A DNA stretch of 64,000 nt from Plasmodiophora brassicae (Eukaryota), in assembly GCA_036867785.1 (NCBI GenBank), contig CP145417.1:682001-746000 (forward strand), read 5' to 3'. The notes under the pieces are model-generated. The model was given only the letters and a program-made list of their open reading frames with translations, was not told the origin of the DNA and did not search any database. How positions within the stretch are numbered: the stretch's first letter is position 1; every line of letters begins with the position of its first letter. Positions 17,155 to 27,512 of this stretch are shown here, piece by piece. Position numbers and translations under genes: made by a program.

Positions 17155-18505
17155 CTATGTAGCGGATGCTACCGCCGCCTCTTGTGATGCAGCTTGACGC
17201 TTCTGGTCGAGAACCTTCGAAAGAAAGAACTCACCTGCCCTGTACGACGACCGGACAAGCGGCCCCGAAGCCACATAGAGGAACCCGAGCGCCTCTCCTG
17301 ACACAACACAACGTCACCGAACCATGCACTTCAACGGAACGCGATGAAACCTTCTTGCCGGAACTGCTCGAACTTCTCGGGAGTCACGTACGAATGGACC
17401 TAGCACATTTTCTGAATCCGAACATCCAAACATAGATTCGTTTCGTTCAACCTTCATGTGTCGTCGGGTAGGCCGGAGGTATTGCCCTAGCGTTAGCACG
17501 GATACCCCCGCAGCCAGGAGGTCCCGCATCGATTGCCGTACATCCTCGTCAGTTTCACCGACGCCCAGCATGATTGACGATTTTGTAATCAGTTCTGGAA
17601 CCGACTGCACATTCACATTAATACTGGCGCCGCAGAACAAACTGGTCGACATCCGACCTTCTTGGCATGTTCAAGAACAGCCAGGCTCTGCCGATAATTG
17701 GCCCGATGGTCGCGCACATACGGCGAGCACGCCTCCACTGTTTCAATGTTGTGAGCGAACACATCAAGCCCCGACTTGGCAACATGTTCAACGCGATCCG
17801 CAACCCCGCTGAAATCTGGCGTTAGGCATTCAACGTGGGGCGGAGCTGACGAGTCCTTCAACAATCTAATCGTCCTGGCGATGTGATCCGCACCCTACAG
17901 GAATCAGTCGTTGCTACTCATGACGGATACAGCGCGTACCTGATCTGGAAGGTCATCTCGATCAACGGATGTCAGGACAACATAATCAAGTCCCCAACTA
18001 TGGATCGCTTTCGCTACCTTCTCAGGTTCCAGTGGGTCCAACGCAGGAGGCGCTCTTGACGTTTTCACTGAGCAGAACCGACAACCTCTCGTACATGTAT
18101 CGCCTAGAGGGTCCAGTAAGACTCCCTATTTCCTAACTTATGTGGCAGGCGAGCAAGGCGCACCCATAAGCATGATTGTTGCCGTTGCTGTGCCCTTCTT
18201 TCCTAACGATGTACGTCAGGATGTGGCCCGCGATATCATGCCGGAGGAGTACCTCCCCAGCATTCGCCGATATTCGGGCATCGCGCCTCCTGGCAGACGG
18301 TCGCCAATCCGAGGTCGGTGACGGTATCCCGCAAGCGACGGTAATTCTCGCTGTCGGCCGGCTCGACCTTGAGCCACGTCGGCTTCGGTTCACGTGCGCG
18401 CCGGATAAACGTCTTTAGACCGGGCCCATCGGGCAGCGGGACCGCCCGCGACGACAAGCGGCGCGCGCCACGCTCCGCCACCGCGCTTCGCAACAAACCC
18501 CACAT
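17155..18505 (-). CDS. LIAS: mitochondrial lipoyl synthase (radical SAM), multi-exon
   Basis: [64 protein letters not shown] and [16 protein letters not shown]-terminus resembles a transit peptide. Confidence 0.95.
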
Positions 18506-18988
18506 TGCCGGCTCCACTCAAGCGCAAAGCGCCGCTACCGACGCGCCGAATCTATTTTTCGGGTCCAGACAACGCGGCCATGATCCCCAGTGTAGGTACT
18601 TATACGACTGTACGGAACTGACGCCATGCGAAGTCCCTGTGTCGCCCGCTGCGTTCCAAGTCACACGCGTTTGGCGGGTCTGAACTCCGTTCCGAACGCC
18701 GACCCGCGCTAGTGTGACGGGTTGTGGCAGCGCGACAAGTATACAACGTCCACCAGAGTTGGACATCCGGAGTGAAGCGGGTTTCCCGAGCTCAACCACG
18801 AGGGGACAGGGAAAGACAGTGAGCGAGAGCGCGCGCGAGGGAGGAAGAGCGAGAGGGTATGTATTGCCGGCTCTACGCATTTGTCCACCGGATCGAAGGC
18901 GCTCGTCAGTAGGTAGCCTGTGGCCACGGATTGTCTCTGAGATCCGCCGTCCCGACCGCCCGTCCGCGAGGTTGTTGTGAGCCTCGCC

Positions 18989-19332
18989 ATGTGGTCCAAG
19001 ATCACCCAGCGCCTACCGTACTTCAACCTCGCCATCGGGTCAACTGCGTTCCTGTTCCAGCTCGGTTCGTGCGGCCGCACGTGGTCCCTAGGCGCAATGC
19101 TGACCTGGTCGTGTGGGCAGGCGTTCTGTACCCATGGCACCAGGAACTCGATACCGAGTTTTACAAATTGCGCGCTGACATTGACGTCAAGCTGCAGCGC
19201 TACCATGAGCTGAAGCTGCAGAAGCTGGAATCGTTGCAGTCCCTGATCGCACACGAGACTGCCAAGGTCGACGCGAACAAACTCGGGGAGCGTGCACCCG
19301 CCGCCGAAGTGAAGCCAGAGAAAGGACATTGA
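18989..19332 (+). CDS. small single-TM coiled-coil protein, 2 exons
   Basis: Spliced NLAIGSTAFLFQL|GVLYPWHQELDTEF resembles a conserved uncharacterised fungal-type family (FQvfVLYPWH motif). Confidence 0.7.
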
Positions 19333-19462
19333 CCAACTTCTAAGTTTTCGACTTGCGTCCCGGGACGAAATAAAGCCTGACGAACTGTTCTGAAGCCCAA
19401 TGGATTTTGAACCGTACTCTGTATTATGTGTTAGGGAAATAGGAACGAACAAGGCCGAACGG

Positions 19463-19807
19463 TCAAGGCGTTTGGGACGGACACGGGTGGCCACCACTCC
19501 CGCTGTCGATAGCGCCCAGCGCATTGGCCGGGGCAGTGAACGACTTCCACAGGTCGAAATCATCATCAGCGTCAAACCTGCCCAGTCTCGGCTTGACCCG
19601 CTTAGGTTCAACCCGGCAGCGACAAATCACGAACCCGGCCACCATGATGGCGGCCATCATCAGCGCGCCAAGAGCCATGTACGCCACAGGATGCCACCCA
19701 GGAAACAGATCGTCGCCATCCCTCGCAGGCAACCATGCGGAACACGAGTGCACACCGGTTGTCGCAACCAGTAAGATACAGGAGGATCGCGAGCTGCTAG
19801 AGATCAT
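19463..19807 (-). CDS. hypothetical small single-pass membrane protein
   Basis: Weak signal-like N-terminus and a TM segment AYMALGALMMAAIMVAGFVIC followed by basic residues. Confidence 0.5.
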   Translation of the reverse strand: MISSSSRSSCILLVATTGVHSCSAWLPARDGDDLFPGWHPVAYMALGALMMAAIMVAGFVICRCRVEPKRVKPRLGRFDADDDFDLWKSFTAPANALGAIDSGSGGHPCPSQTP

Positions 19808-20045
19808 GGTGCTGCCAACACGCCAACACCGAACGACGGTGGACTGGCGGTCCGCTAGTGGTCAAGATTCCAAATCGGGCACCGTCCCGTGCGTTGCGCA
19901 GTCTTTATTTTCGGCTGACCCCGGTATATCCAGGACCAGCGCTCGATTGGACCCCACGCCGGACAGTCGTATTATCGGTTCCGTGCACAGCAACGATGGC
20001 TGGAGCGCTGTCAGTCACAACAGCGCCGGAATGTCAGTGTCAGCG

Positions 20046-22497
20046 ATGACTGTTATCAATGGCGATGTCCTGCAGCGGCGGCTGAAGAACGCCGAAGGCA
20101 GTAACCTTGTCAGCTTCGCAGACAGCTATTTACGAGATCAAGGTGAGTTGTGAGCCGCGCGTTGATGAACCGAAAGAGCGCTGAACGAAAATGGCCAGGC
20201 TGCGAGACTGTTTGCAGGTTCGTGGAACAACAGGCCAGCGTTACTGAGCTGGACCTGCGCGGAAATGATATCCACGAGAGCGGTGCCAACGCAATTGCCA
20301 AACTACTCCGGCTAAACACGACAATCAGAAAGTAATGGCACCGTTAACGACTAGGAAATTTCACCTCGGTGACGTACGAGATAGGTTGAACGTCCAATGG
20401 AACTTTCTGGGAGAATCACATGGCCTGCATGCCATTATGGAAGCCCTGGCGACCAACCGAACGCTCATCAAGGTACGTATTGGCTTAGACAGTGAAACCG
20501 TCGCTGATGAACGATACAGCTGGATCTGAGGAACAATAAGTTGGACGGTAAAGGTGCCAGGTCTGTTGCAGGAATGCTAGCCAGAAACGCCACCCTTCGT
20601 CAGCTCGGTCGGAAACATTCCTGTCGCATGCGAAAGCGCGAATGCTAACATTTCGTCCCCATCAGATCTGCGTTGGAATGCACTGGGAGAGGAAGGTGGT
20701 CGAGCAATATGCCAGGCTTTGCAAGGCAACCATGTCCTTCATGAATGCCAAGTCACTGGCAACAATGTTCCCATGGAAATATGTCAAGGAATCACAGACC
20801 TCCTCGCCCGTAACAAAGCTGGCAGGGTGCCATCATCCGTGCGACGCCCCGTCGAGTCAGCGATATCCAGACCGCCCGGAAAGCCGGGTCTTAACGAAAT
20901 GTTCCAGTTCTCTCAGAACAAGATTGACGCGCTGAAAGCGGAAAATGCTGACTTCGCCCAGGAGATCACCAATTTGAAGGCACAGCTGGCAATGCGGCAG
21001 AACCTGGAACAAGAGCTTCATTGCCAGCGCGTCCAGTTTGAAGCAGCAGAGCGGGACTGGCAGACCCGGACCGATATGAAATCGGTCGAACTGGCGAATC
21101 TGGAGCAGTCGCACGCTGAGGTCAACCTGAAACTTCAGGCGGCTTTGTCCGAGCTCAAGGACCTAACTGATAGGGTTACTCCGACATGCATCGGGTGATT
21201 GTATGGCGGTATTGACGATAGCGAGTGCAGGTGGAGACGATTAAGGCCGAATCGGGTCGACGCGAACGAATGGACGCAGAGATGCGATCCGCCCTGCAGA
21301 AGGACAATTTAGAACTATCGGCACAGATCGACAGGGAGCGGTCCGCCGCCCTGGAATTCACGCAGAGGTTGCAAGCCAGCCTCGACAGTGAAACGAAACG
21401 TCGCGCGCTGGAGAGCGAGGCAACCGCCCAACGTCAGCAGGTAACTTGGCTGGTTGAAAGTTGCCAGCTAGGCCTCTGACAAACATCGTGTATTAAGGAG
21501 GAAGCGGAAAGGTTCGCTGCCGAACTGAAAACGCTCAAGGAGGACCATCAACAGCAGTTGTCGGCGTCTGCTGCAAAGATCAAACAGCTGGAAGCCGACT
21601 TGGACGCGAAGACGTCCGAGCTAGCCGCCGTGAAACAAGGCACCGTCCAGCAGACGTACGAGCTGGAGGAGAAGTACCACCAGATGGAGCGTCGTCTGCG
21701 GGAAGACTACCAGAAGGAGCAAGACTCGAAGGTGGTCGCTATGGAGAACCGCATCGTTCAACTACAGATCTCGCGCGATCAGTTGGAGGCTCGTAGCGCG
21801 GCGCACGAGTCGGACGCCAACCGGTACCGGGAAGCGCTCGACAATGAGAAGATACGCGCCGAGCATGCGATCCAAATGGAGCAGTCCAGTCGCATGCAGC
21901 TGGAAGGCAGTGCAAAGGCTGCTGCCTCTGAACTCAAGCGCAAGGATGCACAGGTCAGCGAATCCTGGCTTATGTGAACGACGAACTCACCCCGATAGAC
22001 AGATTGCCGAGCTCGAAACCCAAGCTGTACGCCTGCGGGATGAAGGCAGGCAGCACAGGTCGCAGCTCGAGTCGGACCTACAGATCAGCGAGGCGTCCAG
22101 ACGTCGGGAAGTTCGCGATCTCACCGATCGCTTGTCTGAGCGCGACGACCAAATCGAGGCAATTCGGACGCAACTTCGCAAAGTAGAGAACGCGAACCGC
22201 TTGCTGAAAGAGGATCGCAGCCGACGGGAGATGAAAGTCAAGACCGCCATGACCGGCTTACGCCAAGCCCTCGACTATGAGGTGGCATCTTTCGCCGATG
22301 ATGCCGAAGACGATGACAACGACAACGACAAAGGCATTAGACGGGCCGGCCGACGATCGCGATCGGCGAATCGCCACAAAAGCCTCTGCGTCGTTAACAA
22401 GGACGCCAAACCCGACCCGTCGTCATTATCGAAGACCGACCTCGACGGTCCTGGACCTGCCATCAAACGCGATCCGGTCAAGACCGGTCGCGAATGA
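20046..22497 (+). CDS. LRRC45-like RI-type LRR plus coiled-coil protein, multi-exon
   Basis: LDLRGNDI, LNVQWNFLG, LDLRNNKL, LDLRWNALG and TGNNVP repeats followed by a long coiled coil. Start 20031 or 20046. Confidence 0.8.
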
Positions 22498-22639
22498 AAC
22501 AGGAACTTAACTGTCGCCCACACCGCCTGCCTGCCCCACCGGAATTCAATGCGTGACTGCGCGCACCTATTTTGGTGCCACTACTGGTGGTGTTACGGGT
22601 GCGGCAGTCGTGACCGTTTAGCTGCCCTCAGTCGCGCAA

Positions 22640-25000
22640 ATGTTATCCGGCGATGACGAGCACGGCCGACTGTCGCCGCTGCTGGCGTTCGACAGCGAGC
22701 AGCTCGTCGCCACGTCGCATCGTCAATGGGCGGCGGTGCAGAACCTCGACACGTTCTTCCAGAAGATAAGTCGTCGCCCGTGGTCGGTGCTGCTGGCGAT
22801 CCGTCTGACGTGCATGCGTGCACATTTATGAGTATTTTGAAGAAAGGGGGTTCTGGAGAATGACCCTGTCCCGAATTGTGAGCCTGCTGACATTGTCGTT
22901 CACCATTCTGTTCTCGACGTTCCTGCTGCTGTACGTGGATTGGAACGAAGTCCTCAACTGCCACACCAGGCGGTCGTGTGCGAAGATCATTGGCATTCGG
23001 CAAGATGCGCTGAAGAAGTATGGGGTTTACGCGATGTCACTGTTGAGTAACTAACACGTTTCATAGCGTTAGCTTTGGCGACGCGGTTGTCATAGCCTAT
23101 TTCGTCGTGTTTTCCCTCTACTGGCTCTGGAACTTAACCAGCTTTCTGTACGGGCTTCGGGACGGATTCGAAATGAGGGCGTTCTACAACACAAAACTCA
23201 ACATCACTGACGTGAGCGGCGTGACGATTGTAGCGACGCAGTGCAACGTTCTGATGGTTGCACGTCAGGACGCCCTTCAGACAATGGAATGGGCCGACAT
23301 TGTGACCCGCCTCGAGCAGCTACAAAGATCCTTCAAAATATCAATCATCAAGGACCACGATGCTCTCGGTAGGCGTACCGTGAGTTCGTAAGCGAACATC
23401 CCTGACACCCAGTCATGCTAGACATATCGAACCGTATTCTAAGGAGAGATAACTACTTCATCGGTACGTACACGTCTGCGGTCATCTGCTCGTTCGGCCA
23501 GCGATTGATTGTTGCACTCTCCAGCGATGGTGAATTGTAATATTCTAGACTTATCTATCCCGTTCCTGACGAAAGAGCTGCATGTCCCACCGATCCTGGG
23601 GAAATCGCTCGAGTGGAACATTCGCTTCTGCGTGCTCAACTCCATGTTTCACGACGAAACGTTTACGATCCCGGAATCGTTCTTTCGCGAGCCGGAACGC
23701 CTGCGACGATTACTGGTTCGCATGGCCTGCGCGAACCTCATCCTGATGCCGTTTATCCTCATCTTCATGATCATATTCTTCTTCCTGAAGAACGCTGAGG
23801 AACTGCACAGCAGGAGGTCGTACCTGGGCCCTCGTCAGTGGTCCTCGTTGGCCCAGTGGATGTTCCGCGAGTTCAACGAAGTGCCTCACGTTTTCAAGGC
23901 GCGTCTGAACGCGTCCCATGAGGACGCCTTGGCGTACATTAGCCAGTTTCCTCCAGGAGCGATATCGATTCTGGCGCAATTCGTTGCGTACGTGTCGGGG
24001 GCGATCATCGCGGTCCTCCTTCTCCTAACTGCCAGCGACACTGCGCTTGTGATGGACATTCAGATCCTGGGCCATTCGCTGGTGTACTATTTGGTGGCAT
24101 TCACTGCACTGCTCGCTGCATCGAGATCCCTTGTTGCGACGCGCCGGCCGAACCAGGACTTTGGCGTGCTGATGTCCAATGTGTTTCGGCACACACATTA
24201 CATGTCAACGCTGTGGCAGGAACAGCCTCAGTCGTCTATTGTTCGGAGAGAGTTCTCCCGGCTGTACCCCTTCAAGGTCATCGCATTCCTTCAGGTAGCT
24301 GGCAGAGTCAGCGGTGGGGCCCTGCCGTCAAGCCGGTCTGATCGTTCACCTGCAGGAAGTGCTGTGCGTGCTCACCACGCCGTTGGTGCTCGGTGTCACT
24401 CTACCAGCAACGGTGGATCGCGTCATTGGGTTCGTTCAGCAGCACACGGTCCGGTTGCCGGGCGTGGGCGACGTTTGCGACTTTGCGACCTACGATTTCT
24501 CCATGTTCAGCGAGACCCGCGCCAGGTCCAGTGACACCGCTGCCAACATAGGTCGGCATTGCTCGACGTGTGTGGACGGATGAATGTGGGATTTGCTAAC
24601 GGCTGGTGTCGTTGTTGCTACAGCGGGCTCCATTCGCAAGGTGGAAAAGTCCCTCGTGTCGTTCTCGATGACCCACCCGTCGTGGTGCCCCAATCGACGA
24701 TGCGTCGAACTGCTGTCCGAGCTGGCAGACCAGGCAGAACCGTTGCAACAGGAACCCGAGCCGTCTCAAGGGCGGACGGATGCTGCTGCGTTGGATTCGC
24801 CGAGGCATCATCAGCACGTGCCCCTGTCCCCGGACGCCAGCGACCTCTCCGAGAGCACACGAGCACTGGCGCTGAACGTCAGCCAGATCGTGTTCTCCGG
24901 GCCCTCCTCCATGTCCCACCGCCTGGACATGCAAGCGGCCATGATGCGGTCCATTGTCCGGACAGATCGGGAAGACGACGCGACCCGGAGCGTCGTCTAG
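22640..25000 (+). CDS. ATG9: autophagy protein ATG9 (lipid scramblase), multi-exon
   Basis: NLDTFFQK|IYEYFEERGF, RILRRDNYFIA, KSLEWNI, GPRQWSSLAQWMFREFNEVPH, GVGDVCDFA and KVEKSLVSF..HPSW. Confidence 0.95.
22766..22823 (+). other. predicted AT-AC intron (58 nt) in ATG9
   Basis: AAG|ATAAGT...CTGAC...TGCAC|ATTTATGAG. Removing it restores the frame and the conserved ATG9 motif. Confidence 0.8.
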
Positions 25001-25073
25001 ATCCACACCAGCTACGACAGTAAAACGCACGTTGAACATGCCGCTGTATGACTAACAGCTCGTGACGGCCCGA

Positions 25074-27146
25074 TCACCCGCGTTTGAACTGATCCTTGAA
25101 CTCAGACACGCCGTCGAACGGTATCCGGATGGGGCGATCCGGCCCCTGCGGCAGGTGGTGGGCCGCCTGCTCCGGCAACCTGTGTGCCACGTACGCCGAC
25201 CTGGCCTCCGACGCCCCGTCGAACCCGGACGCGGCCGGCGCCGCACGACTGGTCGGCGTCGTCAGCCTAACGACCCTGGTCGCGTCGGCGAGCGGCGCCG
25301 TGTAACTCGCGCGCGTCTCGGTCACGCCGTCGAACGGCAGCGGCACCCGTTGGTGGTACGTCTGGCCGTGTTCCCGGGCGCGCTGCGCATCCAGAGCGAT
25401 GGGGACGTAATCGACCGCGTAGGACGAGGCGCCGTCGAACGGCGGCCGCGGCGCCGGCCCCCGCTGCCCGCCGGATTCGTCGTCATGATGCACCCGCCTG
25501 CTCGCCTGGCGCAGCTCGTCGATCGGCACCGGCCTGTAATCCGATCGCGACACGGATTCCCCGTCGAACGTCAGCGGCACCCGCGTCCAGGTGCCGAACG
25601 CGGACGTCTCCCGCCCCGGCAGCGGCATCGGCGTGTAACTCGCACGAGACTCGCTGACGCCTTCGAACGTCAGCGACGACGACGACGACGCCGCCGTGGA
25701 ATCCGCCGGCGCCGTCGTCGGCTGGCTTAGCGCGCGTCCACGATGCGGCGCCGGGTAATCGGATCGCGCCGTCGACGCCCCGTCGAACGCGGGCGTTGCC
25801 AACGCCTTCGCCATCGGCTGGCGCGCGGCCGGCGCCATCGGGTGCGACACGTAATCCGCCCGCGATGTCGACTGCCCTTCGAACGGCGTCTCGCTGATCG
25901 GGTCGACGGCGGCGGCGTGGCGACCCGATCTTGTCGCCGTCGCCGACGACCTCGTCGTCGTCGGTGGTGGTGCCCTGTAGTCCGCCCGATGCACCGACGT
26001 CCTAAGCAGGACACGTCAGGGGGCGGAGCGGGACGCGGACGCGATACTGGACGGTCCCGACCCTTCGAACGGAATGGGTTCGTCCTCGGAAGGAGCGGCG
26101 GCGTCGAACGCGACCCGATTGGCGGCGGCCACCACGTCGCTGCCGTACGGGACGTAGCAGGCGCGCGCCTCGCTGACGCCTTCGAACGGCGACGCCGCCG
26201 GGTGGCTGTCGAACGCCTGGAACGCCGACGCGGACGGTCGCGCCGGGATCGCCTTGGCGACGTCGTGACGGACGTAGCTCGACCGGGATTCGGTCGTGCC
26301 CTCGAACGGGATCTCCGGGTCGCCCGCCTCGTCGTCGTCGTCGAACGCGCCGCGATTCGCCGCCGCCTCCAGTGGCATCGCGTGGAACTCGGCACGGTAC
26401 GACGACGTCGCGTCGAAGGGCGCCGCCGACATCATCATCACGTCGTGGACGTGCACGTCCGGGTCGTCGTCGAGGCGGCGCCGGGCGGGTCCCGCGTCCC
26501 GCGCCGACGACCCGTCGTCGTCGAACGGGACCGCCCGGAAATCGGATCGGGTCGTCGACTGCCCGGTGAACGGCAGGACGAGACGTGGTTTCGGGGGCGC
26601 CGGCGCCGACGACGGCGGCCGCTGGACGTCGTGCCGTCGGTAATCGTCCCGCGCCGACGACTTCCAGGCGCCCGACGCGTTGTCGTCCGGGAAGACGGAT
26701 CCCGTGCGACGTTGCGGGTCGTTGACGATGGCCGATTCGCGATGGCTCCCAGGGTAGTACCGATAGTCGTGCGACGTCGGCACGCCCAGGAACGGGATCT
26801 TCAGCGAGCCACGCGTCGCGCTCGTCGACGGCGACGATGAGGCCGGCGGCGGCGGCGGCTGCTGGTGCACCATCGGGCGGTACTCGGCCCGGTACGACGA
26901 CACGCCCGAGAACGCGCCGTCGTGTTCGAACACGGTCGTCGTCTGGCGGCCTGCCGGCGGCGCGCCTGGCAGGTTCGCGATCGTCGTACCGGGTCGGAAG
27001 TCGGCCCGGGACGTGGACGGGCCGGTGACGGCGTGGACCCGTACCGGTGCCCTTGTCGCCGTCGACGACGACGACGGCGGCGGACCCGACCCCACCCATG
27101 GGCGGTATTCGTCGCGGTACATGGATGTCGACGCTGACGACGACAT
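25074..27146 (-). CDS. SAXO/FAM154 (Mn-motif) axonemal microtubule inner protein, 5' end uncertain
   Basis: Many repeats of PF[ED]GxSxxRxxYxP across two ORFs joined by a GT-AG intron (FEG|TSVHRADY). Confidence 0.82.
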
Positions 27147-27512
27147 GGGTGCCCAACGCGTCCCCTCGTCCCCGGGTTACCAATTGGGATCGTCGGCACC
27201 GTACCCCATGGCCAGCTGTGAAGACGGCCCTTAACGGGCAGGGCAAGGCCTCCTCCACCCGCCGCCGACTTTGTCCATTGCGCCTATGGGACGACACAAG
27301 CGCCACCTTCTCCTGCTCCAGACGCGGGCACTGTCGCTACAACGGGGTGGGTCCGGTCGGGGAGGGCCTACCCGGTCAGGTCCCGGCAGCGGTTGACGTG
27401 GAAAGATCAGTGGGGTCCTGAGCACACAGGGTCCCCGGGGGGTGTGCTCGACTGGTATCGATCGGGTAGGGTACGCGAGCCATACCGTCGACGTCGATAG
27501 GTCGTCGTCGTT

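Follow-up and report, generated by a model that had tools for sequence, protein, structure and literature searches.

U2-type AT-AC introns form a very rare class: their ends are AT-AC, and it is the major spliceosome that removes them. Sheth et al. (2006) counted 24 of them among 610,067 introns in five species, and the examples they cite are the introns of human SCN4A and SCN5A, in which AT-AC termini are combined with an otherwise U2-type 5′ splice site. The same source describes a yeast counterpart, in which a change of the first intron base from G to A is rescued by a change of the last base from G to C, so that the terminal pair makes a U2-type intron spliceable. According to Lin et al. 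(2010), U2-type AT-AC introns, which have A at +4, G at +5 and T at +6, are rare products of the conversion of U12-type AT-AC introns to U2 type; once converted they are trapped, because a change of their ends needs two simultaneous mutations. ATG9 is a gene family with a described minor intron: in Table S6 of Olthof et al. (2024), the minor intron of human ATG9A was responsive in 4 of 9 inhibition data sets, and mouse Atg9a has one minor intron as well.

The first intron of ATG9 in the rhizarian protist Plasmodiophora brassicae (hereafter intron 1) resembles the SCN4A and SCN5A introns in its AT-AC termini and otherwise U2-type 5′ splice site, and it has the same bases at +4, +5 and +6 as the introns discussed by Lin et al. 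(2010). It differs from the two human introns in that it is very short (58 nt), in that its host is reported to lack the minor spliceosome, and in that the major snRNPs are only presumed to act on it. With U12-type AT-AC introns it shares the termini and a putative branch point near the 3′ end; in contrast to them, it has neither the ATATCCTT donor nor the U12 branch consensus, and it resides in an organism reported to be without U11, U12, U4atac and U6atac (Olthof et al., 2024, Table S7). The yeast pair of terminal changes was made up of laboratory mutants, whereas the P. brassicae intron is natural and fixed.

The intron lies in a 64-kb stretch of P. brassicae nuclear DNA, which we call the window. 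The gene that contains it is ATG9. The Pfam profile PF04109 (ATG9) matches 23530-24291 with an E value of 9.5e-69 and 233 bits, and it also matches exon 2 (E 1.2e-13, 51.4 bits), where residue 1 of the exon aligns with position 16 of the profile; both scores are above the cut-off of 27. The translation of the core exon is 100% identical to the P. brassicae ATG9 entry P0001 (647 aa) and 66% identical to the ATG9 of Spongospora subterranea. The coordinates of the gene and of its splicing signals are listed in the following table.

Table. Features of the P. brassicae ATG9 gene, in window positions. Coordinates of introns 2 to 7 are given after register correction of the contig joints; a slash marks a splice junction.
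Feature	Position	Strand	Description
ATG9 coding region	22640..25000	+	8 exons, 7 introns; RNA-supported product 649 aa
Exon 1	22640..22765	+	42 codons, from ATG at 22640; ends ...NLDTFFQK (CAG AAG)
5′ splice site of intron 1, aag/ATAAGT	22763..22771	+	U2-type consensus, A for G at +1
Intron 1	22766..22823	+	58 nt, phase 0, AT-AC ends; RNA joint 22765→22824
GT-AG intron of deposited model	22783..22846	+	64 nt; model reproduces P0001 (647 aa) exactly
Putative branch site of intron 1, CTGAC	22805..22809	+	branch A 22808, 15 nt before 3′ end
3′ splice site of intron 1, CAC	22821..22823	+	YAG at this place in the other 14 introns
Exon 2	22824..23017	+	starts IYEYFEERGFW (ATT TAT GAG TAT TTT GAA GAA)
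Intron 2	23018..23066	+	GT-AG, RNA joint
Intron 3	23212..23268	+	GT-AG, RNA joint
Intron 4	23369..23421	+	GT-AG, RNA joint
Intron 5	23464..23524	+	GT-AG, RNA joint
Intron 6	24295..24355	+	GT-AG, RNA joint
Intron 7	24552..24623	+	GT-AG, RNA joint

A first-pass annotation, made from the sequence, had proposed that a 58-nt AT-AC intron splits a conserved ATG9 motif and had predicted a transcript joint between positions 22765 and 22824. The letters are as it described them: intron 1 opens with ATAAGT and closes with TGCAC, and exons 1 and 2 joined in phase 0 read NLDTFFQK/IYEYFEERGFW. In the joined exons the motif has the spacing observed in homologues such as P0003 (NLDVFFQVMYKYYQNKGF), and a regular-expression search of 80 metagenome ATG9 loci found it uninterrupted in 68. 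A search of sequencing runs with 22500-24700 listed 24 runs, among them six guessed to be RNA that contained 0.64-0.65 of the words. We compared with region 18000-27000 the contigs of three RNA-like runs, X15, X17 and X20, which come from three studies and bear three organism labels, and those of a DNA-like run from a fourth study, X14. The runs were called RNA by guess, and their RNA nature was deduced from contigs that are without all seven ATG9 introns. Results showed the predicted joint in one contig of each of the three RNA-like runs, with 58 nt skipped and ends AT..AC, at a contig depth of 666 in X15, 11.6 in X17 and 56.8 in X20. Between 165 and 192 nt of contig lay on the shorter side of the joint, and the same contigs were also without the six GT..AG introns of the gene. 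The joint can slide by at most 2 nt (a 2-nt microhomology), and none of its three equivalent placements, AT..AC, TA..CA and AA..AT, is GT-AG or GC-AG. Contigs drop rare variants, and intron retention and rare isoforms fall outside their view.

The DNA-like run reads 22584-23436 unspliced, with no other letters and no gaps, and no joints were found in its contigs over 18000-27000. Because X14 reads intron 1 without a single difference, an assembly error is not the explanation, and neither is a base-call error, which the first-pass annotation had named as a way in which its proposal could fail. Moreover, X14 differs from the window elsewhere yet matches it at intron 1, and therefore the intron also exists in a second isolate. 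A pattern of ATAAGT, CTRAY and YAC in this order had a single match in the window, which is intron 1 (chance mean 0.13). These ends are AT-AC and they are used in vivo.

RNA joints support 14 further introns between 18000 and 27000, and the signals of intron 1 were compared with theirs. At the donor, intron 1 matches the U2 consensus at six of six positions (-2, -1 and +3 to +6), and the other introns match it at two to five; at the U12 core positions +4 to +8 it has none of five matches. The U12-type donor sequence /RTATCCTT is not the donor of intron 1, and a search for RTATCCTT gave no matches in the 64-kb window. The donor agrees with what Sheth et al. (2006) say of U2-type AT-AC donors, taken from their verbal description rather than from their matrix, and its full consensus parallels the compensation that they describe for GC-AG introns. 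In length, intron 1 falls among the local introns (47-72 nt). Its putative branch motif, tCTGACg, stands 15 nt from the 3′ end, and of the 14 other local introns, 8 have a CTRAY motif at a distance of 12-17 nt from this end. U12-type introns have a branch site that resembles TCCTTAAC, about 10-15 nt from the 3′ end. Judged by this consensus, the branch region of intron 1, CCGTCTGAC, would not be taken for a U12 branch site, and the distance of 15 nt is the local U2 norm. In 86 P. brassicae introns analysed by Irimia and Roy (2008), tctgac and ctgacr were the commonest putative branch motifs. The earlier assignments of the intron to the U2 type and of CTGAC to a branch site outside the U12 consensus agree with these data, which support the U2 type indirectly: AT-AC ends are present in RNA, the donor is of the U2 type, and the branch motif is the commonest branch hexamer reported for the species and stands at the usual local distance. 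We conclude with high confidence that intron 1 is a genuine, precisely spliced AT-AC intron of the U2 (major-spliceosome) type, that is, an 'AT-AC II' intron. The suggestion that it regulates autophagy or acts there as a rate-limiting step has no support; contigs give no splicing efficiency.

Published surveys bear on the machinery that removes this intron. Table S7 of Olthof et al. (2024) gives, for P. brassicae, zero putative and zero high-confidence genes for U11, U12, U4atac and U6atac, and their Table S4 classes one of its 34,708 introns as 'minor' and 154 as 'minor-like'. Vosseberg et al. (2023), who name P. brassicae among the species in their methods, infer that Rhizaria have lost the minor spliceosome completely, since the proteins specific to it are absent. 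The absence of a minor spliceosome rests on these two surveys, one of which used an older P. brassicae assembly. An Rfam search of the 64-kb window gave no matches, and neither Rhizaria nor Plasmodiophora is mentioned in the main text and one supplement of Larue and Roy (2023). Since the surveys report no minor spliceosome, the major spliceosome is the one splicing machinery that the organism is known to have.

In the mechanism that we propose, U1 and then U6 would pair with aag/AUAAGU at every consensus position except +1, and U2 would pair at CUGAC, 15 nt upstream of the 3′ end of the intron. At the second step, a contact between A(+1) and C(-1) would stand in for the non-Watson-Crick interaction that the first and last G normally form. 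Such a replacement would account for the change of both ends together; the A-C contact itself would follow from the suppression in yeast and from the SCN4A and SCN5A introns cited by Sheth et al. (2006).

The first-pass annotation expected gene finders to misannotate this intron, and they did. The only AG within 22771-22830 is the donor's own, and the in-frame GT-AG options are for this reason 22787-22832 and 22783-22846. Use of 22787-22832 adds ISRRPWS and loses IYE. When 22783-22846 was combined with ATG9 introns 2-7, the reconstruction gave the deposited 647-aa protein, and the 649-aa RNA-supported product differs from this protein solely in having IYEYFEER in place of ISRRPW. We scored the products on an N-terminal ATG9 profile made of 39 distinct segments from 51 metagenome loci, with no P. 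brassicae sequence among them: the AT-AC product obtained 86.8 bits, the product of 22787-22832 obtained 73.0 bits, and the deposited model 54.9 bits. The AT-AC splicing restores the conserved N-terminal ATG9 motif, and the public protein model is without it. Because the gene model used GT-AG ends, eight conserved residues of this motif are missing from the deposited P. brassicae ATG9, and the corrected 649-aa protein should be used in work on autophagy in this crop parasite, the agent of clubroot.

A separate observation concerns the S. subterranea ATG9 entry P0002, which begins with MH followed by IYEYFEQRGFW, exactly at the boundary of P. brassicae exon 2; in P. brassicae, in-frame read-through of the end of intron 1 gives VH. 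The Spongospora model might begin within a homologous intron whose end is ...CAC; alternatively, MH could be its last exon-1 codons.

The origin of the intron was considered with the intron orthology table of Olthof et al. (2024, Table S8), in which the ATG9A column is column 46 of the sheet (columns were counted by script) and orthology was called from 10 residues per side with a match of at least 40%. In this table, the P. brassicae counterpart of the human ATG9A minor intron is classed as 'non-canonical'. The corresponding intron is minor in Nematostella and major in Trichoplax, Arabidopsis, Acanthamoeba and Bigelowiella; Drosophila and Phytophthora sojae have no intron at the site, and Reticulomyxa has no ortholog. 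'Non-canonical' is defined there as a 5′ splice-site score below 50 against both matrices, and an A at +1 together with a non-U12 core would receive this label. As the sole ATG9 intron with non-GT ends, intron 1 is the obvious candidate for the entry, which could in principle mean another intron of the older P. brassicae gene model. Intron 1 and the human and mouse introns belong to one gene family, and it is by the table only that they are paired, with intron 1 as the candidate for its P. brassicae entry; they differ in that the human intron is sensitive to minor-spliceosome inhibition, whereas intron 1 has U2-type signals. Elsewhere, an intron at this site was found in none of the 77 metagenome ATG9 loci that cover it. 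Among all 80 loci, the motif was contiguous in the 68 given above, 9 with a divergent motif, judged by inspection, read through the site, and 3 were without the region. ATG9A was not found in the main text of the CENATAC preprint.

The identity of intron 1 can be read in other ways. According to one of these, the transcripts that chiefly function would use a GT-AG intron, either the deposited one or another, and the AT-AC joint would be a by-product or artefact; we hold this to be extremely improbable. In-frame GT-AG sites do exist, and the joint 22782→22847 was absent among the 15 RNA joints listed of 19, which leaves room for a rare isoform; against this reading stand the dominant contig of all three RNA-like runs, which has the AT-AC joint with its 2-nt microhomology, the products of the GT-AG options, which score 14 and 32 bits lower on an independent profile and lose conserved residues, and the DNA letters, which X14 confirms. 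It is also very unlikely that intron 1 is a U12-type AT-AC intron removed by a divergent minor spliceosome that the surveys overlooked. The AT-AC termini would suit such an intron, as would a branch A 15 nt from the 3′ end, which falls within the U12 optimum but is equally the local U2 norm. The minor type of the orthologous human and Nematostella introns points in the same direction, and Olthof et al. (2024) discuss highly divergent minor snRNAs as possible in some species; their survey nevertheless gave no match for any of the four minor snRNAs in P. brassicae, and the minor-specific proteins are reported absent in Rhizaria (Vosseberg et al., 2023). Within the intron, the donor has none of the five U12 matches at +4 to +8, no RTATCCTT occurs in the window, and CCGTCTGAC is unlike the U12 branch consensus as it is generally given.

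With intron 1 taken as a U2-type intron, its AT-AC ends may be old or new. [quoted passage not shown] We see about an even chance that intron 1 is such a molecular fossil, left by a U12-type AT-AC intron of ATG9 that predated the split between animals and Rhizaria. The first-pass annotation had likewise offered a converted U12 intron as one explanation; that part of its proposal receives partial support, which comes only from the published orthology table. The main alternative is that both ends of an old major intron changed anew: paired changes in a GT-AG intron without U12 ancestry, spliced by the major spliceosome throughout, would have given rise to AT-AC. This is possible, and on the doubtful side. 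Intron 1 is in phase 0, against which minor introns show a significant bias (Olthof et al., 2024), and it retains no residual U12 signal; Table S8 places major introns at the same position in Arabidopsis, Acanthamoeba, Bigelowiella and Trichoplax, and a paired change is tolerated in yeast (Sheth et al., 2006). Such an origin, however, needs two changes, each of them harmful alone, Lin et al. (2010) derive the existing U2-type AT-AC introns from U12-type AT-AC introns that were then trapped, and the position is of the minor type in human, mouse and Nematostella (Olthof et al., 2024). Descent from a U12-type intron, if true, would make intron 1 a natural, RNA-verified example of the rare pathway from AT-AC U12 to AT-AC U2, and it would suggest that other AT-AC introns in lineages free of the minor spliceosome mark former U12 positions.

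Nuclear AT-AC introns of P. brassicae did not come up in a search of the literature, within the parts of the sources that were accessible, and the accessible part of the genome paper of the species mentions AT-AC only for mitochondrial genes; an older P. brassicae annotation may already hold intron 1, as Table S8 suggests. Intron 1 is a new RNA-verified U2-type AT-AC intron, and its lineage is one for which absence of the minor spliceosome has been reported; the class is known, and the intron reveals no new mechanism. Few U2-type AT-AC introns have been tied so far to a lineage without a minor spliceosome, and RNA support together with a possible U12 counterpart in animals makes intron 1 a test case for U12 introns converting rather than disappearing.

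Several features were observed next to ATG9. Downstream of its stop codon there are plus-strand GT..AG introns at 25046-25105 (X15 and X20) and 25356-25422 (X20 only), in RNA contigs that continue from ATG9. They are antisense to long minus-strand open reading frames at 25074-26015 and 26016-27176, which contain a repeated FDG.S..R.DY-like motif and gave no Pfam match. These introns could belong to a spliced 3′ UTR, to a downstream plus-strand transcript or to a merged contig. X14 differs from the window by 21 substitutions, which lie in 25866-26942, and by two insertions of 3 nt, at 26328 and 26843; in 18000-25800 there is no difference. Near 25673-25694, each of the four runs has contig breaks with loose ends. 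This downstream part looks like a variable, repeat-bearing region. Upstream of ATG9, a plus-strand gene (20039-22500) has three short GT-AG introns at 20143-20198, 20332-20384 and 20473-20519, seen only in X20; its open reading frames look rich in coiled coils, and a sub-threshold match to HAUS-augmin3 was the only Pfam match. Farther upstream, two introns of a minus-strand gene, at 18104-18163 and 18203-18252, which read CT..AC on the plus strand, were present at high contig depth in X15 and X20.
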